A stretch of 9,218 bases of DNA from IMG/VR virus record IMGVR_UViG_2534681649_000003; one strand, given 5' to 3'. The notes beneath the pieces were generated by a model. It saw nothing but the letters and a program-made list of their open reading frames with translations, was not told where the DNA came from and did no database searches. The translations under genes were made by a program, and so were the position numbers. This DNA is from a virus. Its lineage: Duplodnaviria; Heunggongvirae; Uroviricota; Caudoviricetes. Of the stretch, positions 3,062 through 8,845 are shown one piece after another (position 1 is the first letter of the stretch; every line of letters starts with the position of its first letter).

Positions 3062-3273
3062 TATTCCCCCTACAATCAATGTGCAATAACATTTAAACAC
3101 ACCTCAATTTGGCCGGACATATAAATATCTAAACCAGAAAAAATCACTTACATAGCGTTACAAACTCTTTAGTCTAAATACTCATCGTAAAACATTCCCC
3201 ATACTTATCAGTCCGTTCCGCGCCAGGTAGCTTATTGCCTTATCTGGCAACCTATAATCAGGTTTCCGCTTTT

Positions 3274-3696
3274 TCAGTTGGCTGGTCGTTTAACCGACAT
3301 AGTTAACCCATTAATCTGGTTGCCGGATGCTGGTGGATTTTCGCGTTTTAGTTGTTCATAAAAGTGCACAGCTTTAACCAGTTCTTCTGATGTAACCGGG
3401 ACTGGTGGGGCAGTGAATAAGGCCTGAATTTCATAGTTCGGCCTGTCGTTACAATCCTCTTTTTTCGGTACATATTTCCAGTCACCAACCCACAACTCCC
3501 CCTGAGAGTCCATAACACCTTTTTTCACGTAGCGATATCGCCACGCTATCGGCTCTGCTTCCAGCGATGCCCGTGCAATTTTGAATAACTCGCCCTCTAC
3601 TCGCGCCATCCCTGAATTGGGGTGGCATTTCGTAATCGCTATTTTTAATTTGGCTTCTTCGATTAATTGTTCTTTTGTTAATTCAGTCATTTTCAT
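3274..3696 (-). CDS. Hypothetical prophage protein (140 aa)
   Basis: Long ORF; preferred start ATG 3694-3696 (MKMTELTKEQ...) with SD AAGGG 5 nt upstream. The ORF-track start at 3729 lies inside the IS1 terminal repeat and is rejected. No family recognised. Confidence 0.75.
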   Translation of the reverse strand: MKMTELTKEQLIEEAKLKIAITKCHPNSGMARVEGELFKIARASLEAEPIAWRYRYVKKGVMDSQGELWVGDWKYVPKKEDCNDRPNYEIQALFTAPPVPVTSEELVKAVHFYEQLKRENPPASGNQINGLTMSVKRPAN

Positions 3697-3715: not shown

Positions 3716-3770
3716 GGTAATGCTGCCAACTTACTGATTTAGTGTATGATGGTGATTTTAAGGTGCTTGC

Positions 3771-4046
3771 GTGGCTTCCATTTCCATCAGATGTCCTTCC
3801 TGCTCCGCTACTGAAGGCGTGGTGCGTAACGGCAAAAGCACTGCCGGACATCAGCGCTATCTCTGCTCTCATTGCCGTAAAACATGGCAACTACAGTTCA
3901 CTTACACCGCCTCTCAGCCCGGTACGCACCAGAAAATCATTGATATGGCCATGAATGGCGTCGGATGTCGCGCCAGTGCACGCATTATGGGCGTTGGCCT
4001 CAACACGGTTTTACGTCACTTAAAAAACTCAGGCCGCAGTCGGTAA
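3771..4046 (+). CDS. insA: IS1 InsA (transposition inhibitor / DNA-binding protein)
   Basis: 91-aa product [40 protein letters not shown]... matches IS1 InsA; GTG start; the -1 frameshift motif AAAAAAC (4022-4028) lies near its 3' end. Confidence 0.95.
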
Positions 4047-4072
4047 CCTCGCGCATATAACCGGGCAGTGAT

Positions 4073-4468
4073 GTGATTGTCTGCGCTGAAATGGACGAAC
4101 AGTGGGGCTACGTCGGTGCTAAATCACGTCAGCGCTGGCTGTTTTACGCGTATGACAGGATACGGAGGACGGTTGTGGCGCACGTCTTCGGTGAACGCAC
4201 TCTGGCCACACTGGAGCGTCTTCTGAGCCTGCTGTCGGCCTTTGAGGTCGTGGTATGGATGACGGATGGCTGGCCGCTGTATGAATCACGCCTGAAGGGA
4301 AAGCTGCACGTTATCAGCAAGCGTTACACTCAGCGCATTGAGCGACATAATCTGAATCTGAGACAACATCTGGCAAGGCTGGGACGGAAGTCACTGTCGT
4401 TCTCAAAATCGGTGGAGCTGCATGACAAGGTCATCGGGCATTATCTGAACATAAAACACTATCAGTAA
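4073..4468 (+). CDS. insB: IS1 InsB frame (transposase catalytic part; made as InsAB' fusion by -1 frameshift)
   Basis: Product ...[41 protein letters not shown]... matches IS1 InsB; frame is -1 relative to insA. Confidence 0.9.
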
Positions 4469-4483
4469 GTTGGAGTCATTACC

Positions 4484-5019: not shown

Positions 5020-5311
5020 TGGCTGTCTCCTGAAAAATCACCGCATGCCCCAGTTTCTCCGCCAGCGCCAGTTCTGCCTTAGCGCCTGCTGACCGCTGCC
5101 AGCCTTTCAGCATGTAAATCGCATCCACACAACGAATCATCGCCATGCAGATATCCATGTACTGCGGCTGTGTCAGCCCGTCCGGAAGTACTGCCGGGTT
5201 TAAGACGGTATGCCCTTCCCGTTTCAGTTCCTCTTCCGCATTGTGAAACGCCTCACGGTTGAAATTTTTATACCCGGTCATTGGACCGGCGATATAGACT
5301 CTCACCCTCAC
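5006..5311 (-). CDS. DUF4406-family protein (nucleoside 2-deoxyribosyltransferase-like fold), prophage accessory gene
   Basis: 101-aa product MRVRVYIAGPMTGYKNFNREAFHNAEEELKREGHTVLNPA... carries the YIAGPMTG...F..A...L...GH.V.NP signature I associate with DUF4406; GTG start at 5311 preceded by AGGAGG; GTGA start/stop overlap with upstream gene. Confidence 0.8.
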   Translation of the reverse strand: MRVRVYIAGPMTGYKNFNREAFHNAEEELKREGHTVLNPAVLPDGLTQPQYMDICMAMIRCVDAIYMLKGWQRSAGAKAELALAEKLGHAVIFQETASVQD

Positions 5312-5770: not shown

Positions 5771-6841
5771 TTACTCCCTGAAGCCCGGCGGAATTTCGTT
5801 ATCCGGTTCAGAAATATGATTCACACAACGCTGGTTGTTCGTGCCGCTTACCGGGAGCAACCAGGGGTTCTCAAAATTCCGGTCCGGTCCAAAAAACGTC
5901 GTCGCTCGCTGAACAAATTCCGTTCCCGTTTTCCCGGTAGCCGCCAGGTATCTTGCGTAACGCCTCACGCCATCCAGCATGGCCTCTGGTGGCACCCCCT
6001 CGCGTAATCTGGCCTTCCAGGCACTGAAAGCGGATTTCTTCGGGTTTGCCCCGGCACGCAACGGGTACTCCCGCCAGACCTGTTCGAACACATCCGGATA
6101 ATCCACTCGTCCCACAGACTGCCCGGTGTTTTCCGGGACTACCCGATCGGCTTCCCGCTGAATGGCGGAATCGGCTTCAGGCTGCTGCAGTTGGTGTGAT
6201 TGCTCCGGACTTGCGGTCATCGCCTGCTGCACAGCGCCCGAATCGGCTTTCAGCGCATACGCTGAATCGGCTTCCGGTGTCGTGCCTGCTGGCTGACCAG
6301 GATTGACGGTCTGAACATCCCCTGCCTGGTTCGTGGCGTTTTTTACGCCATGGACCATAGTGTTTTGATCTTCTTGATCTGTATCTTTATCTGTATCTTT
6401 ATCTGTCGTGACTCGTCGTGACATGTGCGTGACATATCGTGACGCGCCGTGACAATCGCCATTTTGTTCCCGCTTTCTTTCCCTCTCTCGCTGCGCCCTC
6501 TTGCGCTCTGCAGGAGATTTTGCGGTTTGCGAAATATTGCCGTTGTCCTCTTTCAGCACCTGGCGTTTTTCCCATCCAGTGATTAAATCACCATCAAGTA
6601 CCCGCCCCTGCATCGTCTGCAAAATTGAATCAATTACCTCTTCTGTCACGTCGAGCGCACTTGCCAAATCTTCTGTCGTGACATCAATGTGACCTCGCGT
6701 GACATTTCGTGACGCGCTCACCAGGAGGTGGATATACACTGCCATCACTGTTGCAATTGGCTGCCCTGACACCCTGGCAATTGTTCGCCACTTAGGGTCA
6801 TTTGGCATGTCATGCCATAATCTGAGCCAGGCGTTAGCCAT
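5771..6841 (-). CDS. Putative phage replication initiation protein (lambda O-like position), 356 aa
   Basis: Long ORF directly downstream of the cro-like and YdaT-like genes; preferred start ATG 6839-6841 (MANAWLRLWHDMPNDPKW...) with SD AGAGGTGA. The coding sequence contains phased DNA repeat arrays (see repeat features), as ori-lambda does inside gene O. Functional call is by synteny and repeats, not recognised homology. Confidence 0.75.
   Translation of the reverse strand: MANAWLRLWHDMPNDPKWRTIARVSGQPIATVMAVYIHLLVSASRNVTRGHIDVTTEDLASALDVTEEVIDSILQTMQGRVLDGDLITGWEKRQVLKEDNGNISQTAKSPAERKRAQRERERKREQNGDCHGASRYVTHMSRRVTTDKDTDKDTDQEDQNTMVHGVKNATNQAGDVQTVNPGQPAGTTPEADSAYALKADSGAVQQAMTASPEQSHQLQQPEADSAIQREADRVVPENTGQSVGRVDYPDVFEQVWREYPLRAGANPKKSAFSAWKARLREGVPPEAMLDGVRRYARYLAATGKTGTEFVQRATTFFGPDRNFENPWLLPVSGTNNQRCVNHISEPDNEIPPGFRE
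6146..6273. repeat. Four copies of ATCGGCTT (GAATCGGCTT context) spaced 24/72/24 bp inside the replication gene
   Basis: Copies at 6146, 6170, 6242, 6266; spacing in multiples of 3 and 24, encoding repeated (P)EADS(A) peptide units on the minus strand. Confidence 0.7.
6377..6453. repeat. Candidate origin-type repeat block: tandem 12-bp ATCTGTATCTTT (x2 plus partial) followed by five CGTGAC repeats at 10-11 bp phasing
   Basis: ATCTGTATCTTT at 6377-6388 and 6389-6400; CGTGAC at 6407, 6417, 6428, 6438, 6448 (spacing 10, 11, 10, 10). Two GATC sites lie just upstream (6367-6370, 6376-6379). The repeat is read in all three codon phases (CHG, ASR, YVT, MSR, VT), so it is constrained at the DNA level. 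Confidence 0.6.
6645..6713. repeat. Second phased GTGAC array (four direct copies at 10-11 bp spacing plus one inverted copy)
   Basis: GTGAC at 6678, 6689, 6699, 6709 (spacing 11, 10, 10), each in a TCGTGAC-like context; inverted GTCACG at 6645-6650; TTCTGTC precedes two copies. Confidence 0.6.
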
Positions 6842-6912: not shown

Positions 6913-7338
6913 TCAATGCACAGCCACAATATTTCCTGCAGGGCCACCACGATTCATCTGGTTGAAACCAGCGATCGCCACTGCGACAAAATCATCAGCG
7001 TCTCTCACCAGTCGTTCCCGCGTCTCCACTAGTTCCCGAAAATAGGCTGAGCTATGGCTGCGCATTCGGGCCACCAGCAGAGGTGGCATTGCTTTTTCGA
7101 TAGCTGGTAACAACGCCTGAATTTTTTTAAGCGCATCAGGGGTGTCTTTCTCCACCCAGCGGAAAATTTTCTGAGTATTGCGAGCCAGGGCTTCCGGATG
7201 GCTGTCGTCATACAGTTCCGGGAACGTCATTCCCAGCTCGAAATACGCTTTGGTAATTTTCGCAGCCGGTACTTTTTCGCCGTCCGGATGCGCCCAGGCA
7301 TTCATCGCCATGCGGATGTGTTCATGCTTGATTTTCAT
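6913..7338 (-). CDS. YdaT-like (CII-position) prophage regulatory protein, 141 aa
   Basis: Begins MKIKHEHI..., which I recall as the N-terminus of Rac prophage YdaT; sits immediately after the cro-like gene with ATGA start/stop overlap (7335-7338), the position of cII/ydaT in lambdoid early-right operons. Confidence 0.7.
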   Translation of the reverse strand: MKIKHEHIRMAMNAWAHPDGEKVPAAKITKAYFELGMTFPELYDDSHPEALARNTQKIFRWVEKDTPDALKKIQALLPAIEKAMPPLLVARMRSHSSAYFRELVETRERLVRDADDFVAVAIAGFNQMNRGGPAGNIVAVH

Positions 7339-7589
7339 GAATCAACTCCCATCAGCTTTTTCGTAGTAGTTTTATTCCTGCCAATAGTTAAAATTGCATC
7401 GGCAGAAAATAATCCGTTTGATGCAAGAGCGATTTTTTCAGCGTAATTTGTTTCGCCGGTATATTCTGTGCGAGGCAATTTTCCGTTATCCATCCATTTA
7501 TAGATTGCTCTTTGGCTGACACCACAAACGTCGGCCACAACAGCAACGCGAACAGTTTTGATTACATCTTCAAGTGTTTTCTGGTTCAT
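7335..7589 (-). CDS. Cro/YdaS-like small HTH regulator (84 aa)
   Basis: Preferred start ATG 7587-7589 (MNQKTLEDVIKTV...) with SD GAGG 5 nt upstream; HTH-like segment ...VADVCGVSQRAIYKWMDNGKLP...; divergent from the repressor gene. The ORF-track start at 7661 has no SD and overlaps the operator region. Confidence 0.75.
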   Translation of the reverse strand: MNQKTLEDVIKTVRVAVVADVCGVSQRAIYKWMDNGKLPRTEYTGETNYAEKIALASNGLFSADAILTIGRNKTTTKKLMGVDS

Positions 7590-7668
7590 ATCACCCTCAC
7601 AATGTGAACTTTGAGTACATGCTATAACAGAACTGACAGTACATTCAAGAGCGAATATCATTGAACTT
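7590..7668. promoter_or_regulatory. Divergent promoter/operator region (OR-like) between cro-like and repressor genes
   Basis: Plus strand: -35 CTGACA (7633-7638), 17-nt spacer, -10 TATCAT (7656-7661), predicted start at or next to the ATG at 7669 (leaderless repressor mRNA, as for lambda PRM). Minus strand: -35 TTGAAT (plus 7643-7648), 16-nt spacer, -10 TATAGC (plus 7621-7626) for the cro-like gene. Two direct AGTACAT copies (7614-7620, 7638-7644) overlap these elements. Confidence 0.55.
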
Positions 7669-8088
7669 ATGGTTCATGAAGATAAAGCGCGTAAAGAGTT
7701 CGCCAGTAGGCTTGCGCTAGCCTGTGAAAACGCTGGTTATGAACAACATGGAAGGCAGGCAGAAATTGCCCGTCGAATGAAATTAACACCAAAAGCGGTT
7801 AGCAAATGGTTTAATGGCGAAACAATTCCTCGCCGGGAGAAATTAAGGGAATTAGCAACACTAATAGGAACAACACCAACCTATCTTTTGGGAGAGGATA
7901 CAGAAGAAAGTGGACAGGTACGTTTCTATCAGGAGTTAAATCCAAGACAAAAAATCATCATTGACCTTCTGGACGAGCTCCCTGACAGTGAGACAGATGA
8001 ACTTTTAAAAACTCTTGAAGAGAAAAAACAGAAGTACAATGCAATTTACGAAGAGTTAGCACGAAAGAAAAAACAAAAAGCCTCTTAA
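7669..8088 (+). CDS. CI/DicA-like prophage repressor (XRE-family HTH, no S24 peptidase domain), 139 aa
   Basis: HTH_3-type motif ...RQAEIARRMKLTPKAVSKWFNGETIPRREKLRELATLIGTTPTYLLGE...; acidic/basic C-terminal tail but no LexA-like Ala-Gly/Ser-Lys cleavage module; divergent from the cro-like gene; no SD before the ATG. Confidence 0.85.
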   Translation: MVHEDKARKEFASRLALACENAGYEQHGRQAEIARRMKLTPKAVSKWFNGETIPRREKLRELATLIGTTPTYLLGEDTEESGQVRFYQELNPRQKIIIDLLDELPDSETDELLKTLEEKKQKYNAIYEELARKKKQKAS

Positions 8089-8162
8089 ACCAGCATAAAT
8101 CCGGTAGCGCCTTCCTCCGGGTTTGTGCTTCACTTTATCCCATCTCATTTTTTTACACACAA

Positions 8163-8207
8163 AATGTACCATAAGCACTTTACAACAATGAACGCAAAGT
8201 ACATTAT
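8163..8207 (+). promoter_or_regulatory. Predicted OL/PL-like operator-promoter downstream of the repressor gene
   Basis: AGTACATT (8198-8205) is the same 8-mer as in the OR-like region (7638-7645), with an inverted 7/8 copy at 8163-8170; plus-strand -35 TTTACA (8179-8184), 17-nt spacer, -10 CATTAT (8202-8207) overlapping the operator copy. Confidence 0.4.
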
Positions 8208-8385
8208 ATACCTGCCACCCACCCCGCCCCACAGAATGCAGGGCAATACTTCGAGTTACCAGGCAGTGGTCAGGGGTTAAGTAGCCAGCCCGAGGCGTAA
8301 GAACATGACGGCAGGGTTCAACTTTAATAACTATGCAGCAGGTTTTTGTTCCGCTACCCCGGCGTTAAGGGGAAATGAGGTCAGC

Positions 8386-8406
8386 ATGGATACTATCGAT
8401 CTTGGG
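8386..8406 (+). pseudogene. 5' stub of a gene (MDTIDLG) severed by the IS1 insertion
   Basis: ATG at 8386 preceded by GAGG at 6-nt spacing; reading frame runs 7 codons and meets a stop (TAA, 8407-8409) contributed by the IS1 terminal repeat that begins at 8405. Confidence 0.35.
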
Positions 8407-8845
8407 TAATGACTCCAACTTACTGATAGTGTTTTATGTTCAGATAATGCCCGATGACCTTGTCATGCAGCTCCACCGATTTTGAGAACGACAGTGACTT
8501 CCGTCCCAGCCTTGCCAGATGTTGTCTCAGATTCAGATTATGTCGCTCAATGCGCTGAGTGTAACGCTTGCTGATAACGTGCAGCTTTCCCTTCAGGCGT
8601 GATTCATACAGCGGCCAGCCATCCGTCATCCATACCACGACCTCAAAGGCCGACAGCAGGCTCAGAAGACGCTCCAGTGTGGCCAGAGTGCGTTCACCGA
8701 AGACGTGCGCCACAACCGTCCTCCGTATCCTGTCATACGCGTAAAACAGCCAGCGCTGACGTGATTTAGCACCGACGTAGCCCCACTGTTCGTCCATTTC
8801 AGCGCAGACAATCACATCACTGCCCGGTTGTATGCGCGAGGTTAC
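8405..8845 (-). mobile_element. IS1 remnant, inverted relative to the first copy, truncated at IS1 position ~328 by IS2
   Basis: Begins with the IS1 insB-proximal terminal repeat GGTAATGACTCCAACTTACTGAT at 8405; spot-checked segments are identical to the first copy, with one mismatch found (copy 1 position 4058 T vs C here at 8830); IS1 homology stops at 8845, where an IS2 terminus begins. Confidence 0.9.
8420..8815 (-). CDS. insB: IS1 insB frame in truncated copy (no insA, so no functional InsAB' transposase)
   Basis: Protein identical to InsB of the first copy over its length; the ORF-track product extends upstream as an artefactual read-through into the IS2 end. Confidence 0.8.

Follow-up and report, generated by a model that had tools for sequence, protein, structure and literature searches.

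The DNA analysed here, called the window, is the whole 9,218-nt stretch of the IMG/VR virus record IMGVR_UViG_2534681649_000003, a lambdoid prophage remnant of the Rac/Qin type with many insertion sequences (ISs), and this report is concerned with the control region around its 139-amino-acid (aa) repressor gene (7590-8410) and with the leader RNA that would be transcribed from that region. The repressor gene is encoded on the plus strand and is flanked by both non-coding control stretches; the cro-like gene diverges from it on the minus strand, and at the other end the region runs into the start of ydfA, where it is interrupted by an inverted IS1. The genes and sites of the region, with OR and OL for the right and left operator regions, PR for the promoter of cro and PL for the early-left promoter, are as follows (the dyad pattern to which the operators were matched is described below):

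7335-7589, minus strand: cro-like gene of 84 aa with its ATG at 7589, the same start as in E. coli SCU-113, where it is annotated as a helix-turn-helix (HTH) regulator.
7605-7619: ORa, TGAACTTTGAGTACA, the probable operator nearest cro, over the inferred -10/+1 of PR; exact match, aligning with an HK022 OR site.
7621-7648, minus strand: putative PR of cro, with -35 TTGAAT (7648-7643), a 16-nt spacer and -10 TATAGC (7626-7621).
7629-7643: ORb, AGAACTGACAGTACA, probable operator with one mismatch, aligning with the middle HK022 OR site and belonging to direct-repeat family D1.
7633-7661, plus strand: PRM-like promoter of the repressor gene, CTGACA-17-TATCAT, the best site in 7300-8500 with 10 of 12 matches.
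7662-7676: ORc, TGAACTTATGGTTCA, probable operator and perfect palindrome over the repressor ATG (7669); exact match, with an identical 15-mer over the HK022 cI start.
7669-8088, plus strand: repressor gene, 139 aa (WP_000233320.1), with an HK022-CI-like HTH domain and a DicA-like C-terminal tail.
8092-8129, plus strand: hairpin right after the repressor stop codon (-19.2 kcal/mol, z = -5.0, 0 of 200 shuffles).
8165-8179: OL2, TGTACCATAAGCACT, the weakest of the probable operators with two mismatches, abutting the -35 of PL; aligns with HK022 OL TGTACTATTGGTACT.
8179-8207, plus strand: putative PL, an early-left promoter of dicBp type, TTTACA-17-CATTAT, returned by the promoter scan and homologous to HK022 PL TTTACA-17-CATCAT.
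8189-8203: OL1, TGAACGCAAAGTACA, probable operator in the spacer and -10 of PL; exact match, aligning with HK022 OL TGAACTTTAAGTACA.
8386-8404, plus strand: start of ydfA (DUF1391), comprising the first 6 codons and 1-2 bases of the seventh, as seen from IS-free relatives.
8405-8845, minus strand: partial inverted IS1 of 441 nt, 100% reverse-complementary to 4043-4483, which truncates ydfA.

The preliminary description of this DNA had proposed that one short motif, shared by the two control stretches, marks the operators of the repressor. AGTACATT is indeed present at 7638-7645 and 8198-8205 (2 matches in the window against 0.24 expected), and AGTACAT is present at 7614-7620, with 4 matches in the window against 0.68 expected, a number reached in none of 200 shuffles; the fourth of these, at 5157-5163 on the minus strand, is unrelated to the control regions. 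An inverted copy that had been placed at 8163-8170 agrees at only 7 of 8 positions, as the plus strand reads AATGTACC and the copy is GTACATT and not the full AGTACATT. That the motif marks operators is borne out by the alignment of OR and OL/PL with the same regions of phage HK022. The operator itself, however, is probably not an 8-mer but a 15-bp dyad, TGWACNNNNNGTWCA (TGWAC-N5-GTWCA), with AGTACAT(T) as its right half, and OR would have three such sites, of which ORc at 7662-7676 had been overlooked before. Exact matches to TGWAC-N5-GTWCA number 3 in 9.2 kb (0.02 expected, 0 of 200 shuffles), and at up to one mismatch there are 5 matches in the window (0.81 expected), four of them in the two control regions; the matches are confined to 7605-7676 and 8165-8203, except for one in IS600. 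In addition, a repeat search returned a 22-nt direct-repeat family at 7605, 7629 and 8189 with the form TGAAC-N4-AGTACAT, and the centre-to-centre spacing is 24 bp for the pair 7605/7629 and likewise for the pair 8165/8189. In all, five operators are probable, three in OR (7605, 7629 and 7662) and two in OL (8165 and 8189).

The likeness to HK022 is also found in the proteins. The cro-like protein shares 60% identity with HK022 Cro (73 aa aligned, E 1e-33), its matches to HTH_17 and P22_Cro being weak and below the Pfam cut-offs, and the repressor is 47% identical to HK022 CI over 99 aa (E 6e-32), in an alignment that stops at residue 102. The C-terminal third of the repressor resembles DicA of Qin (29% identity to K-12 DicA over 112 aa including the tail, E 5e-15). 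While HK022 CI has ~235 aa, the 139-aa repressor lacks the HK022 C-terminal part, which we take to be LexA-like, and carries the DicA-like tail instead; only HTH_3 and HTH_31 exceed the cut-offs, and no Pfam match to a peptidase (S24) domain was found in it. In the immunity region of HK022 the repressor and cro genes diverge, operators lie between them, and a second operator set and PL lie beyond the repressor gene, and the same layout is found here. The dyad over the repressor start codon is identical, TTGAACTTATGGTTCA, when 7590-7680 is aligned with HK022 OR, and over OL/PL (8150-8210) the window reads AAAATGTACCATAAGCACTTTACAACAATGAACGCAAAGTACATTATA where HK022 reads AAAATGTACTATTGGTACTTTACATTAATGAACTTTAAGTACATCATA; the operator spacer and the flanking bases differ between the window sites and those of HK022. 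When the motif search was extended to this homologous phage, the derived dyad pattern recovered its operator layout, namely three sites in OR, an adjacent pair in OL and a further one ~270 bp beyond OR, which is consistent with the adjacent OL and OR operators and the one ~300 bp downstream of OR described for HK022 (PMC8053113). Unlike in HK022, no dyad site was found beyond cro in the window. Moreover, the HK022 similarity ends at the PL +1, after which HK022 continues with putL and nun, and the window with a different RNA and ydfA.

The other known system to be compared is the dicA region of Qin, which has a short non-cleavable repressor with the same type of tail and a PL-like promoter directly downstream of the repressor gene; this promoter leads into ydfA-ydfB-ydfC-dicF-dicB-ydfD, and the ydfA start and the preceding 40 nt are nearly identical to those of the window. 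In Qin, DicA represses dicBp, the antirepressor Rem relieves the repression, and the pair DicA and DicC work in the manner of CI and Cro; DicA has no RecA-cleavable bond (PMC10448788). The dyad bound by DicA is Oc (PMC3441716), and this Qin operator (TTGTTAGTCATAACTAACAA type, TGTTAG-N6-CTAACA) has no match in the window at up to two mismatches; therefore the immunity of the window differs from that of Qin. With HK022-type recognition and a DicA-like tail without a cleavage domain, the switch would thus combine HK022 recognition with a non-cleavable architecture of the DicA type.

A promoter scan of 7300-8500 returned only two sigma-70-like sites, TTTACA-17-CATTAT (8179-8207) and CTGACA-17-TATCAT (7633-7661), which are the promoter-like sites that had been described as overlapping the motif. 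The former, which had been read as a PL-like promoter firing away from the repressor gene, is homologous to HK022 PL and holds the position that dicBp has in Qin. Its +1 is predicted near 8213-8216 (~8214), and the transcript is expected to start 2-5 nt before ACCCACCCC. The location of PR is taken from alignment with HK022 TTGACT-16-CATAAT only, since its consensus match is too weak for the scan. The repressor mRNA is predicted to be leaderless or nearly so, with an inferred start at ~7668-7669, at or next to the AUG. HK022 has the same arrangement of start-codon operator and repressor promoter, and lambda cI likewise has a leaderless mRNA. The hairpin at 8092-8129 is probably a terminator that ends the repressor transcript before PL; it has an imperfect U-tract and was not reported by the terminator scan, and in relatives with a different immunity type a canonical terminator occupies the same position. 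An ops-like CGGTAGCG at 8101-8108, in the loop of this hairpin and upstream of PL, was treated as chance.

The reading frame that begins MDTIDLG at the ATG at 8386, behind a Shine-Dalgarno (SD) sequence, had been described as cut by IS1 after 7 codons. The cut is confirmed, as IS1 starts at 8405, and it falls after codon 6-7. An IS-free homologue was found, in which the gene starting with MDTIDLG is ydfA, encoding a DUF1391 family protein (intact K-12 YdfA matches Pfam DUF1391 at E 1.7e-28). The stretch 7560-8404 is present at a coverage of at least 80% in 1043 complete E. coli genomes, in most of them at an identity of at least 99%, with ydfA next; IS-free E. coli loci are 99.6% identical and phage Tritos is 99.1% identical. 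In E. coli SCU-113 and phage Tritos the leader is followed by ydfA-ydfB-ydfC-dicF-dicB-ydfD-exonuclease VIII gene (recE)-xis-int, where dicF is a small RNA (sRNA) gene and the dicB operon is a cell-division-inhibitor operon. The window retains only 19-20 nt of ydfA, and the remainder was not found elsewhere in it. IS1-mediated inversion of this remainder was considered and rejected, as no rest of ydfA is found in the window and the gene order of the PR operon across the first IS1 argues against it. The earlier statement that the early-left operon has been decapitated by IS1 is accurate, because promoter, operators and leader stay while the cargo is gone.

Taken together, the region is very probably the immunity switch of a Rac/Qin-type lambdoid prophage, with DNA recognition of the HK022 type, a cut-off dicB operon and a conserved leader RNA. 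Neither the switch nor the truncated dicB operon is new in kind (HK022 and Qin/DicA), and the switch joins its known parts in a new combination. We assume that the 139-aa repressor would bind the 15-bp dyads TGWAC-N5-GTWCA as a dimer, that two dyads 24 bp apart would lie over PR and a third over the start of the probably leaderless repressor mRNA, so that autoregulation would be possible, and that two further dyads 24 bp apart would cover PL, which corresponds to the PL of HK022 and to dicBp in Qin. Once repression is lifted, PL would transcribe the leader of ~170 nt and then ydfA-ydfB-ydfC-dicF-dicB-ydfD-recE-xis-int; in this prophage, insertion of IS1 after codon 6-7 of ydfA has left the control region without its operon. 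Several points weigh against this reading. The support for this immunity type is homology and pattern statistics throughout; the promoter-like sites are not enriched (2 found, 2.4 expected), and as their count is not above chance the support for the promoters comes from homology and not from the scan; the -10 of the putative PR (TATAGC) is weak; OL2 matches the pattern poorly, with its two mismatches; and the leader fold is not thermodynamically unusual, with z of +1.2 for the whole leader and -0.6 for the 5' hairpin. Since the fold is no more stable than that of shuffled sequences, thermodynamics alone would have missed the structure of the leader.

For the long untranslated stretch in front of ydfA, the preliminary description had raised the possibility of an RNA element and had noted that the stretch is C-rich in places. 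The element exists and is backed by compensatory base changes, whereas the C-rich part turned out to be the 5' strand of helices and no unstructured tract. The leader extends from the predicted PL +1 (~8214) to ~8375, and its parts are given here together with the SD of the first gene:

8214-8320 (~107 nt), plus strand: leader 5' module, recognised by covariation; 123 bits with the covariance model R1, no Rfam match.
8221-8225/8273-8277: helix P1.
8229-8232/8266-8269: helix P2.
8238-8243/8259-8264: helix P3.
8284-8286/8294-8296: helix P4.
8244-8258, plus strand: conserved apical loop CAAUACNNNGAGUUA, closed by P3.
8279-8313, plus strand: near-invariant block of 35 nt, holding GAGG and the AUG at 8305.
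8348-8380, plus strand: leader 3' module, with GUUCCGCUA at 8348-8356, CCCC (8357-8360) paired with GGGG (8369-8372) around the loop GGCGUUAA, and the SD GAGG at 8377-8380.

The leader would thus form a three-helix hairpin from the +1 with an invariant apical loop, followed by the 35-nt block and then by a second covarying hairpin before the first gene. Across the family there is hardly any variation in the apical loop CAAUACNNNGAGUUA or in the block AAGUAGCCAGCCYGAGGCRUAWGAACAUGAMGGCA, and the helices change: P3 is GCAGGG/CCAGGC in the window and ACGAAG/CTTCGT or GCTGAG/CTCAGT in other versions, P2 is CCAC/GTGG in the window and CGCAT/ATGCG or GGCAAA/TTTGCC elsewhere, and P1 is CCCC/GGGG in the window and GCAAC/GTTGC elsewhere. 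Covariation was tested on a MAFFT alignment of 26 distinct sequences that was made without reference to structure. In this alignment 89.2% of the cells are paired (82.8% in shuffles), 13 of 21 pairs change on both sides, compared with 4.4 +/- 1.6 in shuffles (0 of 500), and pairing drops to 25-44% when the partners are slid; RNAalifold independently gives the same architecture. With 53 distinct sequences from six genera the covariation is also above all controls, in an alignment that was fitted to the model and so leans towards the structure. G-U pairs are frequent, occurring in 15, 10 and 5 of the 53 sequences at three pairs, and one invariant U-G is present in 52 of 53, which indicates that it is the PL strand that folds and not its complement. 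The 3' module, consisting of GUUCCGCYA and a hairpin, stands ahead of different first genes and is also found in K-12 Qin, mEp460, HannyBb and mEp237, and its stem covaries as well (CCCC/GGGG, GCCG/CGGC, GCCAG/CUGGC). On these comparisons the leader is very likely a functional, conserved cis-acting RNA.

The leader is not tied to one immunity type. In BLAST searches, the last 190 nt of the query (from ~8217) are also found behind unrelated repressors; heteroimmune relatives have their own promoter and dyads immediately upstream, and the similarity sets in at the predicted +1, 9-12 nt downstream of the -10. What follows the leader varies too, the first gene being ydfA here and ydaG in Rac-type phages and K-12 Rac, with yet other small genes in that place in phage Evi and strain M19, and the window-type immunity region is also found joined to a Rac-type version of the leader. 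At a cover of at least 80% the leader is present in 3748 of 5426 complete E. coli genomes (~69%), with a median of 2 copies and a maximum of 8, and it is annotated in no genome record inspected. Viral contigs, when scanned, yielded over 120 leader loci, with 93 distinct versions. A species-level genome scan, in which the search pattern left the central block unconstrained and was combined with R1, extended the family to Shigella, E. ruysiae, Pectobacterium, Serratia, Superficieibacter, Arsenophonus and Phlomobacter. R1 finds one copy per phage, only behind PL, and its score is 118 bits in Tritos. Rfam 15 gave nothing in 8089-8404 at E<=1 in a scan of the whole window, and in a focused scan of 8190-8404 the best matches, to unrelated families, had E 0.59 and 4.6. 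No paper was found, by gene names and by sequence, that prints the leader sequence or treats the racR-ydaG or dicA-ydfA leader; older subscription literature was outside our reach, and a prior description is possible.

In E. coli K-12 MG1655, Rac contains the full 5' module in the unannotated racR-ydaG spacer (NC_000913.3, 1419511-1419617, minus strand; 124.5 bits with R1). The same leader RNA lies there just after a TTGACA-17-TATAGT promoter, whereas the repressor and operators are others, and the first genes are ydaG and ydaF, then sieB, kilS and kilR. The racR-proximal ydaFG operon is still listed with its function undetermined (PMC11014345). K-12 Qin, mEp460 and HannyBb have only the 3' module, and the Qin leader, of ~70 nt, is without the 5' RNA module. 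In phage mEp237 (L196, 1380-1560) a degenerate leader was observed, with a GAAGTAGCC…GGCATACGAAAAC block lacking the P1-P3 hairpin and an intact 3' module (ACGTTCCGCCA and a hairpin with the loop GGCGACAA), and kil follows directly.

As for the way in which the leader works, the reading we prefer is that it would alter the transcription complex during elongation, or else first-gene translation, and so allow PL transcripts to pass the internal sRNA terminators. Control of translation or stability is a possibility that we hold tentatively, control of elongation is rather unlikely, and the remainder falls to other roles. If the action were post-transcriptional, which is possible at best, the leader would carry a stabilising hairpin at its 5' end and a translational control region, in which the conserved GAGG-9 nt-AUG (8293-8307) starts a short upstream open reading frame (ORF), here an N-terminal extension of YdfA, and the last hairpin gates the ribosome-binding site of the first gene. 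In favour of this, neither GAGG nor the AUG varies from Escherichia through to Arsenophonus, also in searches whose pattern left GAGG free; the ORF, which is short, differs between versions and stops upstream of the 3' module; and the 3' hairpin abuts or includes the SD. In the window the AUG at 8305 is in frame with ydfA, and an N-terminal extension of 27 codons is possible; the longer YdfA from this conserved AUG is called in the Tritos annotation, whereas PGAP gives the shorter protein and places the ydfA start at 8386. Elsewhere the conserved AUG opens ORFs of 6-18 codons only (MTAVVD and MKASDDS, each followed by a stop, and 18 aa in Rac). Against such an action it must be said that sequence, length and frame of the peptide are not conserved, and that the conservation reaches far past the SD and start codon, to AAGUAGCCAGCC and the apical loop.

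Protein coding was rejected as an explanation of the leader. It is not a conserved protein, as the ORF from the ATG at 8305 changes frame and length between variants, and the ORFs 8125-8280 (plus strand) and 8056-8232 (minus strand) were not taken as coding, as they straddle the promoter and the former crosses the similarity boundary at ~8217. Furthermore, the prophage anti-sRNAs AgvB and AsxR were rejected as the identity of the leader, as they are located downstream of PR' and not at the leader.

The doubtful alternative within the preferred reading is that the 5' module is a put- or nut-like device, by which the folded nascent RNA, on its own or aided by host Nus factors or by a small protein of the phage, would enable RNA polymerase to run through the terminators of the early-left operon. 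The module starts at the PL +1, exactly where putL lies in HK022, and putL is likewise a structured RNA from the PL +1 (PMC9378689). Like it, the E. coli versions of the leader have no evident N-like partner: YdfA and YdaG, the E. coli first gene products scanned, are without a Pfam N-family match. Yet putL consists of two stem-loops of ~70 nt in total and the leader of one long three-helix hairpin and a conserved block. The leader was rejected as a homologue of HK022 put, as R1 gives no significant match in the whole HK022 genome (best E 0.58, elsewhere) and the alignment decays after the +1. King et al. are said to have dealt with put-like RNAs in J Bacteriol in 2011. Unlike nut and put, the leader has no second copy behind PR, with a single R1 match each in the window, Tritos and the K-12 Rac stretch, and this counts against a put- or nut-like device.

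Elongation control is attractive because, although sRNA terminators lie inside the operons, silencing of racR induces Rac genes as far as intR (bioRxiv 10.64898/2026.09.06.749655). The PL operons hold intrinsic terminators of sRNA genes (DicF, KilS and DicF-like units) before dicB/kil, recE, xis and int; dicB or kil is preceded by DicF and DicF-like terminator units, and in Rac kilS precedes kilR. Transcription termination is named as the origin of DicF in the title of Faubladier 1990 (cited in PMC10448788). It further weighs against a put- or nut-like device that K-12 Qin, mEp460 and HannyBb have the same operon without the 5' module, and that a fall in DicA leads to strong induction of dicB in Qin (PMC3441716). 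In 'Actinobacillus phage vB_Apl-pPE4' (L008, ~3230-3470) we observed a tandem duplicate of the DicF-like terminator unit (GGCGGGTATCC…GATACCCGCCCTTTTT) upstream of kil. E. coli strain M19 has very similar early genes (ydaT, a DicA-type repressor, kil and exonuclease VIII) and a very similar leader, which makes the stated host of this phage look doubtful.

The comparison with nut leads to the same mixture of likeness and difference. The nutL site of lambda (boxA, boxB and boxC, acting with N) also lies in the PL leader before the first gene, but no site resembling boxA (CGCTCTTTA) is found in the window at 8200-8400 and no N gene in the window, and the covarying hairpin at the position of boxB has the loop GGCGUUAA. 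In Arsenophonus and Phlomobacter (six loci inspected) the 5' module is followed by boxA CGCTCTTTAACA, a boxB-type hairpin with a GAAAA loop, a boxC-like GGGGTGTGTGA and an N-like gene, whose Pfam N_peptide match is just under the cut-off. Because it lies upstream of a complete nutL and N gene there, the 5' module is an element separate from nut and no simple substitute for it, which is another point against its acting as a put- or nut-like device; as a nut site it was rejected, since it has no boxA and coexists with a real nutL. The 3' module takes the place of nut in the versions of E. coli, Serratia and Pectobacterium, at the position of boxA and boxB in those of Arsenophonus, and it may be related to nut. 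The leader of the Arsenophonus N-like gene shares UUUGGGGUGUGUGA with the leader of lambda N.

In Arsenophonus and Phlomobacter (L138, L142, L146, L162, L172, L186 and others) many copies of the leader were observed, each behind a different repressor gene; in some assemblies the matches were spread over many different contigs, and one 8-kb stretch held as many as three copies. In Pectobacterium (L155, ~6460-6600; L195) the first gene after the leader encodes an Arg/Lys-rich protein of 43-50 aa (…RMAQRLAQKARAQNSSKKWDAANRIMARA…), without a Pfam match. The 43-aa form ends in ...KKWDAAN and would fit a put- or nut-like device working with a small phage protein; it resembles the arginine-rich RNA-binding peptide of lambda N (…RRAEKQAQWKAAN).

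It may be, although the chance is low, that the 5' module, and perhaps the whole 170-nt leader, represents an undescribed family of cis-acting RNAs at the start of PL in many lambdoid prophages of the Enterobacterales, acting on polymerase or on Rho/Nus-dependent termination. If this were true, it would be a third solution beside N/nut and put, and it would explain how transcription in Rac/Qin-type phages without N gets beyond the DicF and KilS terminators and into dicB/kil, recE, xis and int.

Distinctly improbable, and already disfavoured, is the explanation that the leader is conserved as DNA only, either as a recombination linker between mosaic modules or through recent spread, and that there is no functional RNA. 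The leader does lie exactly at the mosaic junction of the immunity and early-left modules, and most E. coli copies are 95-100% identical. However, the divergent copies keep their helices by compensatory changes (the ACGAAG/CTTCGT and GCTGAG/CTCAGT forms of P3 and GGCAAA/TTTGCC of P2), the slid-partner controls fall to 25-46% paired, and the apical loop and the block are invariant while the stems change. That the AGTACAT recurrences are due to chance and 8179-8207 is no promoter is very improbable and already disfavoured by homology: short motifs do recur (AGTACATT occurs twice in 8 of 200 shuffles) and the promoter-like sites are not in excess, but the full dyad has three exact matches in place of the 0.02 expected, OL/PL and OR align in position with HK022, and the module boundary falls just after the -10.

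The remainder of the window is shaped by its insertion sequences. IS600 genes occupy its left end (65-1221), a complete IS1 lies at 3716-4483, and an IS2 fragment cuts the right-hand IS1 copy from ~8846, with InsB-like and IS2 InsD-like ORFs. So dense a set of insertion sequences may point to a genome of the Shigella kind. The two inverted IS1 copies bracket the entire replication-immunity segment and show 100% identity over the 441 nt kept by both; between them the minus strand carries a replication-organiser gene, a ydaT-type gene and the cro-like gene, and the plus strand carries the repressor gene. Outside this segment a complete type I toxin-antitoxin locus of the hok/sok type was observed at 2467-2792 on the minus strand (Rfam sok 115.6 bits, gathering score 59), with a Hok-like ORF (MKQQKAMLIALIVICLTVIV...) after sok, in the same place as hokD in intact relatives. 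A weak isrK-like match lies at 2377-2458 on the minus strand (27 bits, gathering score 50, E 0.011), in a stretch that ends in a GC-rich hairpin and U-tract just downstream of hok/sok.

The switch would account for the silencing of the toxic dicF/dicB in a very common type of E. coli and Shigella prophage, and in this genome IS1 has removed the toxic cargo but not the control region. Of greater weight than the switch is the leader RNA, present in about two-thirds of complete E. coli genomes, often in several copies and including K-12 Rac. If it controls elongation or translation, it would bear on the delayed-early programme of lambdoid phages without N, on how KilR, DicB and DicF are kept off or on, and on the tolerance of internal sRNA terminators, and its copy in K-12 Rac offers a ready experimental system.

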